Below are positions 93 through 5,743 of a DNA stretch of 5,743 nt, in pieces. A program made the position numbers and the translations under genes. This stretch comes from a virus. The notes beneath the pieces are model-generated. The model saw only the letters and a program-made list of their open reading frames with translations. It did no database searches and had not been told where the DNA came from. The DNA is taken from IMG/VR virus record IMGVR_UViG_3300045988_005865; one strand, given 5' to 3'. Position 1 is the stretch's first letter; every line of letters starts with the position of its first letter.

Positions 93-147
93 ATAATCAA
101 GTCCGCAGAGTAGGAACATACGATACCAGAAAAGAAGGTTGACAAAA

Positions 148-537
148 GTGATTAAAAGCTATATCATGGACACAGACGCAAACGAAAAAGTAGGGCAACA
201 CTTTAAAGTACGAGAATTCGCTTGCAAAGACGGATCACAAGTAGTTTTTATAGATAGTTACCTAGTATCTATCCTAGACATCCTCAGAAACCAAATCGGA
301 AAGCCTGTAATCATCAACAGTGGATACCGGACACCGGAAAAGAATAAAGCGGTAGGCGGTGCAAAGTATTCATACCACATGCGAGGAATGGCAGCAGACA
401 TACGGGTTAATGGAATGACCGCAAAAGAAATTGCCAACAGACTGAATAAAATCATTCCGAATGAATGCGGCATCATCGTATATAGCACGTGGGTACACAT
501 CGACACACGCACCAAAAAATACAGAAAGGGGGTATAA
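148..537 (+). CDS. Zinc D-Ala-D-Ala carboxypeptidase-like peptidoglycan peptidase (Peptidase M15A / Peptidase_M15_3 type), a putative endolysin
   Basis: The ORF is open from 139 to 537. The family pattern is clear: SGYRTPEKNKAVGGAKYSYHMRGMAADI ... GIIVYSTWVHIDTR. This gives the H-x6-D ... H zinc ligand set (H at nt 376-378, D in AAD, H in VHID). The start is ambiguous. TTG 139 directly abuts the SD-like AGAAGG (133-138). GTG 148 lies 9 nt after that SD and is preferred here. ATG 166 has no SD. Confidence 0.85.
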   Translation: MIKSYIMDTDANEKVGQHFKVREFACKDGSQVVFIDSYLVSILDILRNQIGKPVIINSGYRTPEKNKAVGGAKYSYHMRGMAADIRVNGMTAKEIANRLNKIIPNECGIIVYSTWVHIDTRTKKYRKGV

Positions 538-538
538 A

Positions 539-661
539 ATGGCACTGATTTCCATTAAGGACGTCAAACAGGCAATCCGCATTATGATGCAGATTCTCGA
601 AAAGCTTGACGAGATCTATCACGCACTGCATGATAGCATCAACGAAGACGAAAAGGAGTAA
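539..661 (+). CDS. Hypothetical small protein (40 aa, acidic, predicted helical)
   Basis: ATG 539 is preceded by GAAAGGGGG (525-533) at 5-nt spacing and lies 1 nt after the peptidase stop (TAA 535-537). The product is MALISIKDVKQAIRIMMQILEKLDEIYHALHDSINEDEKE. The track's longer 461..661 ORF overlaps the peptidase in another frame and has no SD. I recognise no family. Confidence 0.55.
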   Translation: MALISIKDVKQAIRIMMQILEKLDEIYHALHDSINEDEKE

Positions 662-665
662 AACC

Positions 666-893
666 ATGATGCACAAAACATGGAACGTAAGAGACCAGAC
701 CAAAGAAGCGTTGGAAATCCTACTCGAACGAAAGTACAAAGAAATTGATAGCAATTACAAGATGCTTAGAAAAGTGTCAAATATCGAAGACGCTAAAAGA
801 CTAATAGATGAAATTTGGCAAATGAAAAATTTTGCAAACACCATCGAAATAGAACTGATGAGAAGGAAGTATAAAAATGGCACGACATCGTAA
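666..893 (+). CDS. Hypothetical protein (75 aa, charged, helical or coiled-coil-like)
   Basis: ATG 666 lies 7 nt after AAGGAG (653-658) and 4 nt after the previous stop (TAA 659-661). The product is MMHKTWNVRDQTKEALEILLERKYKEIDSNYKMLRKV... The track's 606 start lies inside the upstream ORF and has no SD. I recognise no family. Confidence 0.6.
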   Translation: MMHKTWNVRDQTKEALEILLERKYKEIDSNYKMLRKVSNIEDAKRLIDEIWQMKNFANTIEIELMRRKYKNGTTS

Positions 894-1015: not shown

Positions 1016-1255
1016 ATGGAACATCTGTATTACGGAATTTGGGACGAAGTAGCAAAGTGCTATGCATGGGTAGGCGAAAGCAAGAACAACGCAACCTTTG
1101 CGCGAATGTGCAACGTAATGGCAAAGGATGAAAAAACCTTCATTGGACAGGCGCCGGGGGACTACGTAGGCTACAGGCTGGCAAAGTTCGATGACGAAAC
1201 CGGAGCCTTCAACAACGACAAGGAAAAAGCATGGGAGGGCAAGCCGCATGAATAA
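1016..1255 (+). CDS. Conserved small microvirus non-structural protein (VP5-like), 79 aa
   Basis: ATG 1016 lies 7 nt after AGAAAGGA (1001-1008). The pattern YYGIWDEVAKCY...KNNATFARMC...DEKTFIGQAPGDYVGYRLAKFDDETGAF resembles the small protein recurrent in gokushovirus genomes (Y.I.D.VA..Y ... A.R.F ... P.D..L..LG.FDD.TG.F). This is recalled from family knowledge and was not searched. Confidence 0.65.
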   Translation: MEHLYYGIWDEVAKCYAWVGESKNNATFARMCNVMAKDEKTFIGQAPGDYVGYRLAKFDDETGAFNNDKEKAWEGKPHE

Positions 1256-1646
1256 ACGATACGAAGAAGGGCGAAAGCCCTTCTTTTCTGAATCGGGCGA
1301 AAAAATGCGAAAGCAATACGTTTGGACGAAAGATGAAAAAGGGAAGGAAGTGTTACAGGAGACTGCACCAATCGACATCCAGCAAGAAATCGAAAGCTAT
1401 GCAGAAGAATGCGACATCAAAAACATCGTCCGAAAAGCAAGTTTCGACCCGCAGTTTCTGAAAAGTCTGTCAGAAGGAGCGCTAGAAGGAACAGAGGTGG
1501 ATATCACCGAATTTCCGCAAAACATTCATGAGTATCACCGCATGATTGCGACCGCACAGACAAACGCAATGAAACTTGAAGAACTGCAAAAAAAGGCAGC
1601 AGAAGAAGCAAAAGCAGAGCCTAAAGCAAAGGAGGAAGAAAAGTGA
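1248..1646 (+). CDS. VP3: Internal scaffolding protein VP3 (132 aa from ATG 1248)
   Basis: The motif ESYAEECDIKNIVRKA matches the gokushovirus VP3 signature (D/E)ECD(I/V)N.I(V/L). The C-terminus is acidic and lysine-rich. GGGAGGG (1233-1239) lies 8 nt before ATG 1248, and the start overlaps the upstream stop (ATGAATAA, 1248-1255). The track's 1191 start would add 19 aa with no SD. Confidence 0.8.
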   Translation: MNKRYEEGRKPFFSESGEKMRKQYVWTKDEKGKEVLQETAPIDIQQEIESYAEECDIKNIVRKASFDPQFLKSLSEGALEGTEVDITEFPQNIHEYHRMIATAQTNAMKLEELQKKAAEEAKAEPKAKEEEK

Positions 1647-3328
1647 ATCGAAACAATGAACGGCACTTCAATCAGATTCCAGAAATGAAAGCAAGCCGAA
1701 CACGATTCAACCGTGACCAAACTATTCTCACAACGTTTGATTCCGGCAAGCTGATTCCGTTTTATGTTGACGAGGTGTTACCGGGCGATACATTCAACGT
1801 AGATACGTCAGCAATCATCCGAATGACCACGCCGAAGTATCCGGTGATGGACGATGCATTCATTGACTTCTACTATTTCTACTGTCCAAACCGCATTTTA
1901 TGGGATGATTTCAAGCACTTTATGGGAGAAGTTGAAGAAAAGCCCTGGATGCCAACGAAAGAATACAGTGTACCACAAATCGAAATCAAAGGGTCGAATT
2001 CTAACCCTAAACCGTATGAAGGCTCAATACTGGATTACATGGGAATCCCAACGAAAATTAAAAACACTTTCAAAATAAACGCACTTCCAATCAGAGCGTA
2101 CACAATGATTTGGAACGAATTTTTCAGGGACGAAAATGTAGAAAATGCGGCAGTATGGAAAAACAACAGCGAAAATACAGAATATAACGATACAAAAGAT
2201 GAAGGTAACCAAGAAGGAAATCTGCAGAGAGCAATCATGGGAGGAAGATGCCTACCGGTAAACAAATTCCACGACTACTTCACAAGCTGTCTGCCTTATC
2301 CTCAGCGCGGGCCGGAAGTGGCACTGCCATTAGAAGGGAATGCAGCGGTCAATCTATACGACAACCAGCAGCTAACAGAAAAAACACCAACAAACGAAAA
2401 CATATGGCTCAACGGCAACGTAAGAGGGCAAGAAAGTACATTGCCAAGAATCGGAAACTTCCCAACAGAATACAACAAAGGGTACCCCGCACTAATTAAC
2501 GGCGCGTTAGAAGATGCGGGAACTAAAAAGAAAGATGCATTCTTAGGAGCAGACCTTAGCACAGTAACTGCCGTAACCATCAACGAATTAAGAAAAGCCG
2601 TAGCAGTACAGCAGTACTACGAGGCACTTGCAAGAGGTGGCAGCCGTTACAGGGAACAGGTACAGGCACTATGGGATGTAGTAATTTCCGACAAAACCGT
2701 ACAAATCCCGGAATACCTTGGCGGTGGCAGATACCACGTCAACATGAACCAAATCGTACAGACAAGCGGACAGCAGAACAACAATGACACACCCATTGGT
2801 GAAACGGGTGCAATGTCAGTAACGCCCATCAACGAAAGCTCTTTTACCAAATCTTTTGAAGAGCACGGATTTATCATTGGTGTGTGCTGTGTACGGCACA
2901 ACCATTCGTACCAACAGGGACTCGAACGTTTTTGGAGCAGAACAGACAGGCTGGACTACTATGTACCGCAATTCGCAAATCTGGGCGAACAGCCGGTAAA
3001 GAAAAAAGAAATCATGCTGACCGGCACAGAAAGCGACGAAGAGACGTTCGGCTATCAGGAAGCATGGGCGGACTACAGAATGAAACCAAATCGAGTATCC
3101 GGCCTCATGAGAAGCAACGCAACGGGAACGCTGGACTTCTGGCATTATGCCGACAACTATGCAAACGTACCGACACTGTCGCAAGAATGGATGGCAGAAG
3201 GAAAGGAAGAAATTGCACGCACGTTGATCGTGCAAAATGAGCCACAGTTTTTCGGCGCAATCCGCGTAACAAACAAAACCACAAGACGGATGCCGCTATA
3301 CAGCGTACCGGGCTTGTATAAATTGTAA
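1643..3328 (+). CDS. VP1: Major capsid protein VP1 (Microviridae F-type capsid protein), 561 aa
   Basis: Several hallmark blocks are present: RTRFNRDQTILTTFDSGKLIPFYVDEVLPGDTF, DYMGIP, INALPIRAYTMIWNEFFRDEN, KFHDYFTSCLPYPQRGPE, TINELRKAVAVQQYYEALARGGSRYREQV and IPEYLGGG. The GTG start at 1643 lies 7 nt after AAGGAGG (1629-1635) and overlaps the VP3 stop as GTGA. Confidence 0.95.
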   Translation: MNRNNERHFNQIPEMKASRTRFNRDQTILTTFDSGKLIPFYVDEVLPGDTFNVDTSAIIRMTTPKYPVMDDAFIDFYYFYCPNRILWDDFKHFMGEVEEKPWMPTKEYSVPQIEIKGSNSNPKPYEGSILDYMGIPTKIKNTFKINALPIRAYTMIWNEFFRDENVENAAVWKNNSENTEYNDTKDEGNQEGNLQRAIMGGRCLPVNKFHDYFTSCLPYPQRGPEVALPLEGNAAVNLYDNQQLTEKTPTNENIWLNGNVRGQESTLPRIGNFPTEYNKGYPALINGALEDAGTKKKDAFLGADLSTVTAVTINELRKAVAVQQYYEALARGGSRYREQVQALWDVVISDKTVQIPEYLGGGRYHVNMNQIVQTSGQQNNNDTPIGETGAMSVTPINESSFTKSFEEHGFIIGVCCVRHNHSYQQGLERFWSRTDRLDYYVPQFANLGEQPVKKKEIMLTGTESDEETFGYQEAWADYRMKPNRVSGLMRSNATGTLDFWHYADNYANVPTLSQEWMAEGKEEIARTLIVQNEPQFFGAIRVTNKTTRRMPLYSVPGLYKL

Positions 3329-3367: not shown

Positions 3368-4204
3368 ATGAGTGTATTATCAGGCCTTTTAACAGGTTTA
3401 AACGTAGCGGGAAACGTGGCAAATACGATCGGAACTGTTGCAGGAGCAGCTAAAGACGTAGCCGGAATATTCGGCGGCTGGGGTCAAACCGGCAACAGCA
3501 AAAGCCAGGGCGGAGCCGTAAGCCAAGGCGGCGGACACTCAGAGAGCGAAAGTTATTCGGGCACAAACGTACAACAGGTAAACGACTGGCTTAGACAGGC
3601 ATATGCATACCAAGGGCAAGAAGCTGCCATGCAAGGTAAATACAACAGTCAAAGCATGCTTAAACAGATGGGTTACAACACCTTACAAGCAATCATGCAA
3701 GGCGTATATAACCACATTGAAAACAGCGTAGCAATGAGCTACAACAGTGCAGAAGCACTAGCAAACCGTAAATGGCAAGAGCACATGAGCAATACAGCAT
3801 ATCAAAGAGCCGTTGAAGATATGAGAAAAGCTGGGCTTAATCCAATCTTAGCTTTTGCCAACGGCGGTGCAAGCACGCCAGGCGGCAGTGCAGGAACAAT
3901 CAGCGGTGCAAGTATGGGACTAGCAAGCAGCAGCGCACTAGGAATAAGTAGAAGCGGCGGTTTCGTACCGAACGCATACGAAAGCAATAGCTGGAGTAAA
4001 AGCGACTGGTACAACGCATCACAAAGTTGGCAACAGATGCTCAGTAGTACGCAAATGACGCCTTATGGATTAGCAAAGACTTTAACAAGCATCGGAAACG
4101 ATACTGGAAAAGCAATAGAAAAAGCAACAGAACCAGAAAGTAAAAAGCACAAAAGCAAAGCTGGAGTAACACACGGCGGCGGTGGAGGTGAAATCAAAAA
4201 GTGA
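3368..4204 (+). CDS. VP2: DNA pilot / minor capsid protein VP2, 278 aa
   Basis: The N-terminus is Gly/Ala-rich and hydrophobic (MSVLSGLLTGLNVAGNVANTIGTVAGAAKDVAGIFGG). The central motif WQEHMSNTAYQRAVEDMRKAGLNPILA is typical of microvirus VP2/H-class pilot proteins. The C-terminal half is Ser/Gly-rich. ATG 3368 is the first possible start because an in-frame TAA lies at 3365-3367. Confidence 0.85.
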   Translation: MSVLSGLLTGLNVAGNVANTIGTVAGAAKDVAGIFGGWGQTGNSKSQGGAVSQGGGHSESESYSGTNVQQVNDWLRQAYAYQGQEAAMQGKYNSQSMLKQMGYNTLQAIMQGVYNHIENSVAMSYNSAEALANRKWQEHMSNTAYQRAVEDMRKAGLNPILAFANGGASTPGGSAGTISGASMGLASSSALGISRSGGFVPNAYESNSWSKSDWYNASQSWQQMLSSTQMTPYGLAKTLTSIGNDTGKAIEKATEPESKKHKSKAGVTHGGGGGEIKK

Positions 4205-5220
4205 GTTGCTACAAGCCATTAATAAGGCTGTACAACCCGAACGATAAAAACATCAGCGGGAGGGTGTATTCACTCTCCCGCTTTTCTCAGTTAGCGGGAA
4301 AACAGCTCAAATATGAAGACCTGATGTACAGAAAAGATATCATGTTGATACCATGCGGGCAGTGTATCGGATGTAGAATCAGACAAAGAGAGGACTGGAC
4401 AACACGAATAGAATTAGAAGCACGAGACTACCCAAGAGAACAAGTTTGGTTTATAACATTAACTTATAATGATGACCACGTACCAGGCATGATAGTAAAC
4501 ACAGGTGAAATCATGCGAAAAGTACAATACGTCTGGAAGCCGGGAAAGAAGCGCCCTGAAAGCGTCCAAACGTTGCTATATACTGACGTTCAAAAATTCT
4601 TAAAACGTCTCAGAAAAGCTTATAGGGGCAAATTACGCTATTTTGCAGCGGGAGAATACGGAGAACAGACAGCAAGACCGCATTATCATATGATACTGTA
4701 TGGATGGGAACCAACAGACCTAGAGCACCTATACAAGATACAACACAACGGATACTTCACAAGTAAATGGCTAGCAGACGTATGGGGCATGGGTCAGATA
4801 CAAATAGCGCAAGCGGTACCGGAAACATATAGATATGTTGCGGGATACGTCACAAAAAAAATGTATGAGATAGACGGTCAGAAAGCAAACGTATACTACG
4901 AACTGGGACAACAAAAACCTTTTGCGTGCATGAGCCTAAAGCCGGGCTTAGGAGATAACTATTACCAAAAGCACAAAGAAGAAATCTGGAGACAAGGGTA
5001 TATCCAATGCACAAACGGCAAACGCGCACAAATTCCACGTTATTATGAAAAGAAGATGGAAGCAGAAAACCCACAAAGGTTGTGGAGAATTAAACAGAAC
5101 AGGCAAGCAGCAGTCATAGCAGAAAACCGACTAAAGTACGAAAATGCAGACTTTGCAGAACAGTGCAAGACGAAAGAGAGAGTGATAAAGAAACAGATGA
5201 AGAAAAAAGGGACACTATAA
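4201..5220 (+). CDS. VP4: Replication initiation protein VP4 (HUH rolling-circle endonuclease), 339 aa
   Basis: MSCYKPL... N-terminus, then the PCGQCIGCRIRQREDW cysteine cluster. RCR motif 1 is FITLTY (nt 4450-4467). Motif 2 is PHYHMILYG (HYH at nt 4681-4689). Motif 3 is YRYVAGYVTKK (nt 4828-4860), carrying the catalytic tyrosines. GTG 4201 overlaps the VP2 stop as GTGA, and GGAGG (4184-4188) lies 12 nt upstream. Confidence 0.93.
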   Translation: MSCYKPLIRLYNPNDKNISGRVYSLSRFSQLAGKQLKYEDLMYRKDIMLIPCGQCIGCRIRQREDWTTRIELEARDYPREQVWFITLTYNDDHVPGMIVNTGEIMRKVQYVWKPGKKRPESVQTLLYTDVQKFLKRLRKAYRGKLRYFAAGEYGEQTARPHYHMILYGWEPTDLEHLYKIQHNGYFTSKWLADVWGMGQIQIAQAVPETYRYVAGYVTKKMYEIDGQKANVYYELGQQKPFACMSLKPGLGDNYYQKHKEEIWRQGYIQCTNGKRAQIPRYYEKKMEAENPQRLWRIKQNRQAAVIAENRLKYENADFAEQCKTKERVIKKQMKKKGTL

Positions 5221-5240
5221 CAGTGTCATAGTGTCACCTG

Positions 5241-5274
5241 GCCCAGTACCTATCAAGTAAGGTACTGGGCTTTT
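5241..5274 (+). terminator. Intrinsic terminator-like stem-loop downstream of VP4
   Basis: GCCCAGTACCT (5241-5251) pairs with AGGTACTGGGC (5260-5270), giving an 11-bp perfect stem with the 8-nt loop ATCAAGTA, followed by TTTT (5271-5274). It lies 20 nt after the VP4 stop. Confidence 0.65.
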
Positions 5275-5293
5275 GTCGTCTAAGGACTCCATG

Positions 5294-5320
5294 TATCAGT
5301 CTATTCAGTCTATCAAGTAA
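5294..5320 (+). repeat. Three tandem degenerate 8-9 nt repeats. The last one belongs to an 11-nt exact copy of the terminator-loop sequence.
   Basis: TATCAGTC (5294-5301), TATTCAGTC (5302-5310), TATCAAGTA (5311-5319). CTATCAAGTAA occurs exactly at 5250-5260 (the loop of the 5241-5270 hairpin) and again at 5310-5320, exactly 60 nt apart. Confidence 0.8.
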
Positions 5321-5327
5321 TATAATC

Positions 5328-5381
5328 TATAACGCACGTGCGCACACGCGCGATAGCGCGCACGCGCGCACGCGCGCTATA
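5328..5381. repeat. GC-rich, purine-pyrimidine alternating imperfect palindrome (hairpin/cruciform-capable) bracketed by TATAAT boxes
   Basis: The arms TATAACGCACGTGCGC (5328-5343) and GCGCACGCGCGCTATA (5366-5381) are complementary at 14 of 16 positions. An inner hairpin pairs GCGCG (5348-5352) with CGCGC (5357-5361) around the loop ATAG. Positions 5332-5352 and 5356-5377 each show perfect R/Y alternation. TATAAT occurs at 5321-5326 and 5378-5383. Confidence 0.85.
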
Positions 5382-5415
5382 ATATTAACTTGTTGTAGGA
5401 GTAGTAGTAGAGGCA

Positions 5416-5589
5416 GTGGAAAAGTTGAAAAGTACTAAAATTTAACGCTAAAGCGTAAATAAAAAGCAAAAAATACTGTTGAAAGTTTTGTTGAAAACTT
5501 GTTGAAATGTTGAAAGTCCGTCAAAATGACGAAAACCTTTGTGCAACATTTTGTGGAAAACCTGTTGAAAGTGTTGAAAGTGTTGAAAA
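5416..5589 (+). repeat. Iteron-like array of ten same-orientation copies of (T/A)GT(T/G)GAAA
   Basis: TGTTGAAA is at 5477, 5489, 5500, 5508, 5563, 5572 and 5581 (start positions). AGTTGAAA is at 5423, TGTGGAAA at 5552 and AGTGGAAA at 5416. The last three TGTTGAAA units form a perfect 9-nt tandem (TGTTGAAAG TGTTGAAAG TGTTGAAAA, 5563-5589). GAAAACCT also occurs twice (5531-5538 and 5556-5563). Confidence 0.85.
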
Positions 5590-5658
5590 CGCGCACAGCG
5601 CTTACAATGAATGGATCAGCCGAGCTCCGCATGCGCTACGCACGGCAAGGCGCTAAAG

Positions 5659-5743
5659 CGCTTTCAAAACAAAGGAGCAAAACCGAGTTACTAATATATC
5701 AATTAAAATTCTAGAAAAGCTTGACTTTTTTCAAAAAAAAAAG
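5659..5743. repeat. Terminal redundancy, right copy, identical to 1-85
   Basis: Exact 85-nt match to the window start. See the feature at 1-85. Confidence 0.9.

Follow-up and report, generated by a model that had tools for sequence, protein, structure and literature searches.

The window analysed in the present study is the whole stretch of 5,743 nucleotides (one strand, 5' to 3') of IMG/VR virus record IMGVR_UViG_3300045988_005865, and the identity of bases 1-85 with bases 5659-5743 makes it a microvirus circle of 5658 nt. Between the genes for the replication initiator VP4 and the M15 endolysin of this circle lies a 213-nt cassette, the larger part of which is an array of ten short, co-oriented repeats. 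On balance, we favour the reading that this array is the DnaA-box part of an oriC-like cassette, which would copy the basal unwinding system of a Firmicute chromosomal origin and open the replicative form of the phage. The binding of DnaA to the array appears probable from the sequence, and unwinding at the cassette somewhat more likely than not. The element is termed oriC-like and not oriC because of its location, since a chromosomal oriC is found beside dnaA/dnaN, and the neighbours of the cassette are the VP4 and M15 genes of a microvirus.

The repeat array and the parts of the cassette

First, the repeats are confined to one strand and one region of the genome. The perfect heptamer GTTGAAA was observed eight times, on the plus strand only (starts 5424, 5478, 5490, 5501, 5509, 5564, 5573 and 5582), compared with 1.25 +/- 1.0 in shuffled sequences, and none of 200 shuffles reached eight; TGTKGAAA was likewise observed eight times, compared with 0.5 expected. 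Together with the G variant GTGGAAA at 5416 and 5553, GT[TG]GAAA totals exactly ten, all on the plus strand at 5416-5588, and no further copy was found on either strand of the 5658-nt genome outside this interval. An earlier note on this DNA, made from the letters alone, had described ten co-oriented repeats, a perfect 9-nt tandem triple and a coding part in which no further perfect GTTGAAA was spotted by eye, and the genome-wide count on both strands and its comparison with shuffled sequences bore out these statements, with the triple at 5563-5588. When the box was loosened to TGTKGAWAA with at most one mismatch, 18 sites were found compared with 6.7 expected, 11 of which lie at 5415-5589 on the plus strand. 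The box starts also share one helix face (for a period of 10.5 bp the resultant is 0.76, with P = 0.0004 relative to randomly placed boxes), and no such signal was obtained at periods of 10 or 11 bp.

Second, the array is joined to the parts of a known unwinding module. The rule for the basal unwinding system describes two boxes with at most two and at most four mismatches to TTATCCACA, no more than 3 bp apart, followed by a gap of approximately 4 bp, at least three NAN trios (with a central A; 3'-GAT-5' is equivalent to 5'-TAG-3') and an A/T-rich region beyond (PMC8287927). In the cassette, the reverse complements of the two abutting boxes, TTTTCCACT and TTTTCAACT, show two and three mismatches to TTATCCACA, the G/C-rich gap AGGC is 4 nt long, and five consecutive trios follow, whose central A is kept in the variants of relatives; the pattern of trios plus box pair was obtained in none of 200 shuffles. 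The orientation of the boxes is that of four of the five host dnaA-dnaN regions used as comparators, and, relative to the trios, it appears to agree with that of the B. subtilis origin. The trio run at 5396-5410 and the A/T tract at 5378-5395 had been overlooked in the earlier note, which assigned the role of unwinding element to the A/T-rich stretch 5431-5476; this assignment is not supported, as the box pair separates that stretch from the trios, where the known architecture places unwinding, and the stretch is free in sequence at a fixed length of 46-47 nt.

Conservation and inversion among microviruses

The same array, with the same spacing, is carried by VP4 relatives from IMG/VR (80 loci with 89-95% protein identity), so that the repeat number and spacing, whose conservation the earlier note had left to an alignment, are indeed kept. 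When IMG/VR was scanned for the pattern of trios plus box pair, at least 120 stretches matched; among the matches listed, 110 of the 114 further contigs were microviruses of 4.4-6.3 kb, with identities to the window of 29-95% for VP4 and 34-98% for VP1. Among these same matches, the cassette is thus present in more than 100 gokushovirus contigs, always near VP4, and in the clade with approximately 37% VP4 identity the module lies upstream of this gene. At the DNA level the cassette is the best-conserved part of the genome: it still matches where coding DNA no longer does, and several GenBank microviruses match the window here alone.

In an alignment of 139 unique cassettes, conservation was seen in AACTTGTTGTAG, in the trios and in the boxes of both the pair and the arrays, and the spacers 5432-5476 and 5517-5551 are unconserved in sequence. 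The three box-proximal trios (5402-5410) are nearly invariant, with the rare variants TAA and CAG retaining the central A; the fourth trio (5399-5401) is free, and GAG, ACG, TCG, AAG and CCG are observed in the alignment. The sequence AACTTGTTG(TAG) is also nearly invariant across the phage clades. Box position 4 is T or G and never C. The window's TGTTGAAAA at 5489 is aligned with a perfect consensus box, TGTGGATAA (equivalent to a perfect TTATCCACA), in clades with approximately 47% and 55% VP4 identity, and two contigs with approximately 30% VP4 identity (L290 and L293) carry (TAG)6-7, GCATT and GTGGAAAtGTGGAAA, with a box pair, followed by four or five copies of TGTGGATAA. Because the perfect TGTGGATAA substitutes at homologous positions, these alignments support the interpretation of the repeats as equivalents of DnaA boxes. 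The first spacer (5432-5476; mean z -1.6) behaves in the alignment as a phasing or looping spacer, because 138 cassettes keep it at 46-47 nt and its sequence varies freely. Such a selection pattern, in which boxes and proximal trios are kept, spacers are fixed in length only and a 10.5-bp phase is maintained, fits what would be expected of a DNA-binding and unwinding element.

In six close relatives (L022, L024, L033, L042, L046 and L066), the segment 5378-5590 is precisely inverted, with both flanks unturned, and the right end of the cassette at approximately 5590 coincides with the right breakpoint. The inverted cassettes form a sequence clade of their own, with extra junction bases and shared variants, which indicates a single old inversion that has been retained, not ongoing flipping; the candidate of a phase-variable invertible switch was rejected for this reason. 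Among 110 further contigs from the matches listed, the module has the same orientation as VP4 in 77 and the opposite orientation in 33. The coding-strand excess of A over T at four-fold sites is nevertheless +0.52 to +0.66 in every clade except L290/L293, whatever the orientation of the module. If this skew reflects the packaged strand, its constancy implies that the cassette does not decide the strand, and the proposal that the cassette, through an internal nick site, sets the packaged strand was unsupported, save for L290/L293. The inversions and the unchanged skew suggest an action on the double-stranded replicative form and point to a cassette that would work in either orientation, with its function on double-stranded DNA. 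Thus, the nick site is probably located outside the cassette, which probably also has no role peculiar to single-stranded DNA, and strand-specific functions more likely reside in the non-inverting flanks, namely the palindrome at 5328-5381 and the hairpin at 5619-5646, both of which keep their orientation where the cassette is inverted.

One relative, an 8.8-kb IMG/VR contig (L034), follows the microvirus sequence until window position 5323 and continues from its own position 4116 with unrelated sequence and no cassette. Chimeric assembly or an integration junction may account for it, and, as a chimeric or longer contig, it was discarded as a natural deletion variant.

Relation to bacterial origins and alternative explanations

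Third, arrays of the same design occur beside dnaA in bacteria. A scan of one genome per bacterial species, in which three close copies of GTTGAAA were required, returned many simple 8-nt tandem repeats in unrelated bacteria, which were ignored, together with arrays in bins of Oscillospiraceae, Ruminococcus and Negativibacillus. With dnaA and dnaN identified by Pfam Bac_DnaA and DNA_pol3_beta and by tblastn, the arrays adjoin dnaA in all five loci that contain dnaA in the examined stretch (L088, L125, L153, L165 and L192) and lie between dnaA and dnaN in the four that also contain dnaN (L125, L153, L165 and L192). The box density is 7-28 per kb in these dnaA regions compared with 0.4-1.7 per kb outside. 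The host layout consists of A/T-rich DNA, (TAG)4-6, GGGG(T), GTTGAAA-ct-GT(T/G)GAAA, a spacer of approximately 50 nt, and arrays of TGTTGAAA and TGTGGAAA at a spacing of 8-12 nt; this layout holds in L088, L125, L153 and L192, and L165 has a trio run, no recognisable adjacent box pair and just five boxes. The phage and four of the five host regions therefore have the order 5'-(TAG)n-gap-TGTKGAAA in common, the gap between the trios and the first box being GGGG or GGTA in hosts. No matches to VP1, VP2, VP4 or M15 were found in the host loci, and the suspicion that these loci are hidden microviruses was rejected on this basis. Among the binders that the earlier note had proposed (VP4, DnaA or a transcription factor), DnaA is the best fit, given the host dnaA-dnaN arrays and the perfect boxes in other phage clades. 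Mimicry of a CRISPR repeat, suggested by the similarity of GTTGAAA to the 3' end of some repeats, was set aside in view of the 8-9-nt unit, the absence of a repeat hairpin and the host-origin match.

Two further observations were made in the bacterial genomes. In the origins of L125 (1965-2025), L192 (reverse strand) and L153, an 11-13-nt inverted repeat, GTTGAAAACTT ... AAGTTTTCAAC, reaches across the spacer of approximately 50 nt and has the second proximal box as one of its arms, whereas the phage has a direct box at that place. In addition, a three-box GTTGAAA cluster with spacings of 12 and 9 nt recurs in many genomes of Oscillospiraceae, Ruminococcus and Faecalibacterium (L096, L103, L120, L131, L138, L151, L173, L184, L200, L204 and others), with dnaA absent from the examined stretch; these clusters may represent DnaA-box clusters outside the origin.

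In the order and orientation of its parts, the cassette resembles the Firmicute basal unwinding system, as known from B. subtilis incC boxes 6/7 with their DnaA-trios and from C. difficile oriC2, and it uses the same box variant as the five Oscillospiraceae-type origins. In C. difficile, DnaA-dependent melting occurs in the dnaA-dnaN region beside a trio run, the reverse complement of which is TAG TAG TAA TAG TAG TAG (PMC7561715). In B. subtilis, the three trios closest to the boxes are both required and enough, with a critical central adenine (bioRxiv 10.1101/2022.03.18.484894), and the distal boxes act via a phased loop (PMC6669920); similarly, the trios conserved in the phage are the proximal three, and the fourth is free. 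Unlike Firmicute origins, however, the phage module, whose function here is predicted, is found in a 5.7-kb single-stranded DNA phage and not beside dnaA, is limited to 213 nt with a very short A/T tract, and occurs in either orientation; unlike C. difficile, the phage has no oriC1-like partner cluster.

The plasmid and prophage origins P1 oriR, F, pSC101 and R6K also belong to mobile replicons that recruit DnaA via boxes next to an A/T-rich region, and the cassette resembles them in this respect; these replicons require an iteron-binding initiator of their own, with DnaA as an accessory. The phage differs in lacking both such an initiator (of the Rep or pi type) and iterons of 17-22 bp, as its repeat core is 8-9 nt and its sole initiator is the rolling-circle protein VP4 (phrog_942), and in apparently copying the chromosomal module, including the trios. 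The proposal of an origin-like iteron array is thus retained in one part, as DnaA-box-like sites are arranged as in a chromosomal origin, and the term "iteron" in the plasmid sense is not.

Herein, we propose a sequence of events on the double-stranded replicative form. Host DnaA would occupy the ten co-oriented, helically phased TGT(T/G)GAAA boxes, and the tandem pair at 5415-5431 would steer a DnaA-ATP filament over the 4-nt gap onto the TAG trios at 5396-5410. The duplex would then open across the trios and the A/T tract next to them (5378-5395), and unwinding is placed at 5378-5410 because the known architecture puts it beyond the trios, away from the boxes. This opening might start or boost replication of the replicative form, either through the loading of host helicase and primase for theta-type initiation before or alongside rolling-circle synthesis, or through a melted substrate offered to the rolling-circle machinery. 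The broader hypothesis that gut gokushoviruses have taken over, possibly repeatedly, the origin-opening module of their hosts with host-matching boxes, and depend on DnaA to open and replicate the double-stranded form, seems quite possible to us, although we stop just short of calling it probable.

Several observations weigh against this proposal. Microviridae are known to use rolling-circle replication, for which DnaA is not known to be required. The cassette of the window contains no perfect consensus DnaA box, and the strict relaxed E. coli box TGTGNAWAA, from which the earlier note had argued, matches once compared with 0.73 expected, which is no enrichment and is statistically meaningless alone. 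The A/T tract spans just 12-18 nt and abuts a G+C-rich block, where host origins have at least 100 nt of A/T-rich DNA, and the spacing of the two proximal boxes is 8 nt in the phage compared with 9 nt in hosts. In vitro, C. difficile oriC2 without oriC1 shows no unwinding (PMC7561715), so that a lone oriC2-like module may not suffice. The host genomes are metagenome bins chosen by their GTTGAAA pattern, and their number is therefore biased, the position of the match within each genome being unbiased. Comparison of the phage genome with the host loci by blastn gave only a 31-nt match in the box array, with no extended similarity; recent capture from a sequenced host is thus unsupported, and the resemblance may reflect either descent from a host origin or convergence. 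Finally, L290 and L293 combine an inverted module with an opposite skew of -0.64 (T over A), as would be predicted had the packaged strand changed together with the orientation of the cassette, in a confounded comparison with n = 2 from a very distant lineage; phiX174-like composition also has T over A at such sites.

Among the alternatives, the main rival, which we regard as unlikely, is that the array acts as a DnaA sink or as a DnaA-responsive switch, without unwinding. As a sink, the many-copy replicative form would soak up DnaA in a datA-like manner and thereby block host initiation or alter DnaA-regulated transcription; as a switch, bound DnaA would regulate a nearby phage promoter. The ten boxes per genome copy and a function independent of orientation are consistent with a sink, as is the disturbance of initiation by cloned DnaA-box clusters in B. 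subtilis, and a promoter-like site at 63-97, approximately 130 nt downstream of the cassette, is consistent with a switch. E. coli datA and the B. subtilis DnaA-box clusters resemble the array as dense boxes away from the chromosome origin; however, datA-type titrating clusters lack, to our knowledge, a trio run and an unwinding region, whereas the phage boxes are attached to a conserved trio run and A/T tract, with the trios under clear selection. A sink would also be expected to favour perfect, high-affinity boxes, and it leaves unexplained why the three proximal TAG trios are nearly invariant, why the gap stays at 4 nt, why the box pair always faces the trios in one direction and why the A/T tract is conserved. 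With considerably lower probability, the array might instead serve a phage protein, either VP4 or the small DNA-binding protein encoded at 1016-1255, in the manner of the "bind" repeats of rolling-circle plasmids or the iterons of circoviruses and geminiviruses, with a nick perhaps in the conserved TAACTTG/TTG at the slash. The element is always near VP4, rolling-circle initiators of the VP4 type commonly use direct repeats, and the pMV158 bind locus and the circovirus and geminivirus iterons are likewise short, co-oriented direct repeats near a rolling-circle initiator gene. Those repeats are bound by their own initiator and lie beside a nick-site hairpin, whereas the phage repeats are common to bacterial origins, where arrays and trios occur in dnaA-dnaN regions without microvirus genes, and they remain unchanged while VP4 falls to 29-37% identity. 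The conserved hexamer AACTTG, next to A/T-rich sequence, resembles the viral-strand origin of phiX174 (CAACTTG/A), but that origin is located inside gene A, without DnaA boxes or trios, and inversion of the cassette leaves the strand skew unflipped. The chance expectation of AACTTG in the non-coding region is approximately 0.25, and this lead is weak because AACTTGTTG recurs as ordinary inter-box sequence at 5496.

It is very improbable that the repeats are sites for another host regulator such as Spo0A, which would tie the phage to sporulation as in phi29. TGTTGAA differs by one base from the 0A box TGTCGAA, many Oscillospiraceae are spore-formers, the B. subtilis origin has 0A boxes that overlap its DnaA boxes, and such boxes are also present in phi29; on the other hand, C is never found at position 4 of the boxes in 139 cassettes, the perfect DnaA box TGTGGATAA takes their place at homologous sites, and host-origin function requires the trio-adjacent boxes to be DnaA boxes. 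Equally slight is the probability of a strand-specific element of the single-stranded genome, such as a complementary-strand start or a packaging signal. The cassette is non-coding and lies beside strong hairpins, the whole non-coding region folds better than shuffled sequences (z = -4.5), and DnaA-dependent priming on a box-bearing hairpin is known for plasmid R6K. Nevertheless, the strand skew is unchanged between the two orientations of the cassette, its boxes, being direct repeats, form no duplex boxes by pairing with one another, and the strong folding resides in the flanks that do not invert. Least credible of all is a small protein gene (5526-5714 or 5507-5656) or a structured non-coding RNA, despite the "hypothetical protein" annotated here in some GenBank records and a 5526 frame that is open in most close relatives. 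No PHROG family matched the three open reading frames (ORFs) that overlap the array region (5507-5656, 5526-5714 and, on the minus strand, 5435-5632), and all three were rejected as coding. The 5507 frame contains stops in 49 of 67 unique relative cassettes, a G-to-T swap at 5552 creating TGA. In the 5526 frame, variation inside the cassette is 0.058, 0.042 and 0.025 at codon positions 1, 2 and 3, that is, lowest at the third position with no third-position excess, and frameshifting indels are present at 5572, 5616 and 5663; the inversion of the cassette cuts both of these ORFs. A structured RNA or tRNA was rejected, as no Rfam match was obtained at E<=1, the tRNA scan was empty and RNAalifold predicted 0 pairs in 26 diverse cassettes. 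The view of the earlier note that the region lacks a convincing gene was thus upheld.

For the preferred reading of an oriC-like unwinding cassette, no description of such an element was found in the searched open-access literature on DnaA with Microviridae, on DnaA-trios or oriC-like DnaA boxes in phages, or on gokushovirus origins. The origin-unwinding module itself is already known, and what appears to be new is that single-stranded DNA phages contain it, conserve it and carry it in either orientation. The origin and host-factor needs of Gokushovirinae, and the hosts of their abundant gut members, are gaps to which a conserved oriC-type module might contribute a concrete, testable cis element with a named host partner, DnaA, and it suggests either a new replication start for a single-stranded DNA phage or a new hijack of the host cell cycle. 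If the reading is true, a family thought to rely on rolling-circle initiation alone would possess a DnaA-dependent replication step, and the hosts of uncultured microviruses, here Oscillospiraceae-type Bacillota, could be read from origin mimicry as a sequence-based predictor. It would also provide a natural minimal (213-nt), inversion-tolerant origin-unwinding system, useful for mechanism studies.

The module of trios plus box pair was also observed in two viral contigs that are not microviruses. In a 38-kb contig (L235:3675-3703), it is flanked by a primase gene and an ORF of unknown function, and in a contig with head protease and anti-restriction genes (L317, approximately 8265), TTATCCACA and TGTGGATAA boxes are found close to it. 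Tailed phages or phage-plasmids may also show such mimicry of origins.

Gene layout and flanking elements

All genes of the microvirus circle are located on the plus strand (Table 1), and the closest GenBank records belong to gokushoviruses of the gut, obtained from the faeces of humans and pigs. No gene with support was found in 5277-5658 plus 1-138.

Table 1. Coordinates of the genes, the cassette with its parts, and the flanking elements in the window.
Feature	Position	Strand	Remarks
M15 endolysin	139-537	+	
ORF of unknown function	606-893	+	
Small DNA-binding protein, VP5-like	1016-1255	+	
VP3	1191-1646	+	
Major capsid protein VP1	1643-3328	+	
Pilot protein VP2	3368-4204	+	
Replication initiator VP4	4201-5220	+	Rolling-circle protein, phrog_942
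Intrinsic terminator-like hairpin after VP4	5240-5276	+	GGCCCAGTACC...GGTACTGGGC then TTTT; 12-pair stem, 7 G-C pairs, T-run
G+C-rich palindrome, alternating purine/pyrimidine (CG/CA)n	5328-5381	.	Approximately 50 nt; 25-nt arms, 80% complementary
Whole cassette	5378-5590		TATAATATTAACTTGTTGTAG...GTGTTGAAAAC; 213 nt
A/T-rich tract	5378-5395	+	TATAATATTAACTTGTTG; left inversion breakpoint; beyond the trios, away from the boxes
DnaA-trio run	5396-5410	+	TAG GAG TAG TAG TAG; five consecutive NAN trios, four of them TAG
Gap	5411-5414	+	AGGC; 4 nt, G-rich; length invariant in all aligned cassettes, sequence varies
Tandem box pair	5415-5431	+	AGTGGAAAA (5415-5423) and AGTTGAAAA (5423-5431), abutting
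First spacer	5432-5476	+	A/T-rich; weak small hairpin TTTAACGC-TAAA-GCGTAAA
Box array I	5477-5516	+	Four co-oriented boxes, starts 5477, 5489, 5500 and 5508 (spacing 12, 11, 8)
Variable middle spacer	5517-5551	+	Small hairpin CGTC-AAAAT-GACG (5519-5531); degenerate box-like TGTGCAACA (5540-5548)
Box array II	5552-5590	+	TGTGGAAAA at 5552; TGTTGAAA at 5563, 5572 and 5581 (spacing 11, 9, 9)
Two conserved G+C-rich hairpins, right flank	5619-5646 and 5649-5662	+	Outside the cassette

The terminator-like hairpin lies outside the cassette and marks its left side. The palindrome is situated directly to the left of the cassette, where it abuts the A/T tract; it is prone to form Z-DNA and, in single-stranded DNA, a strong hairpin. 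Palindromes of the (CG/CA)n type with differing loop sequences are present in several clades and absent in others, e.g. L033, L206 and L209. On the right side, the hairpin at 5619-5646 (GCCGAGC...GCACGGC) shows three compensatory pairs among 20 relatives (G-C to A-U in 7, U-A to C-G in 8, and G-C to U-A in 2) and is present even in the clade with approximately 37% VP4 identity. It is a candidate for a complementary-strand start site or a 5'-leader structure, and the right-flank hairpins together, both of which stay unturned where the cassette is inverted, are candidates for carrying the strand-specific functions, on single-stranded DNA or RNA, of the non-coding region.

Several small repeats were also observed around the cassette. 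The loop sequence of the terminator, CTATCAAGTAA (5250-5260), recurs 60 nt downstream (5310-5320), and TCAGTCTAT is tandemly duplicated at 5296-5313; both look like small duplications between the terminator and the palindrome. A 10-mer mini-hairpin, CGCTAAAGCG, is found both in the first spacer (5446-5455) and in the right-flank hairpin (5651-5660).

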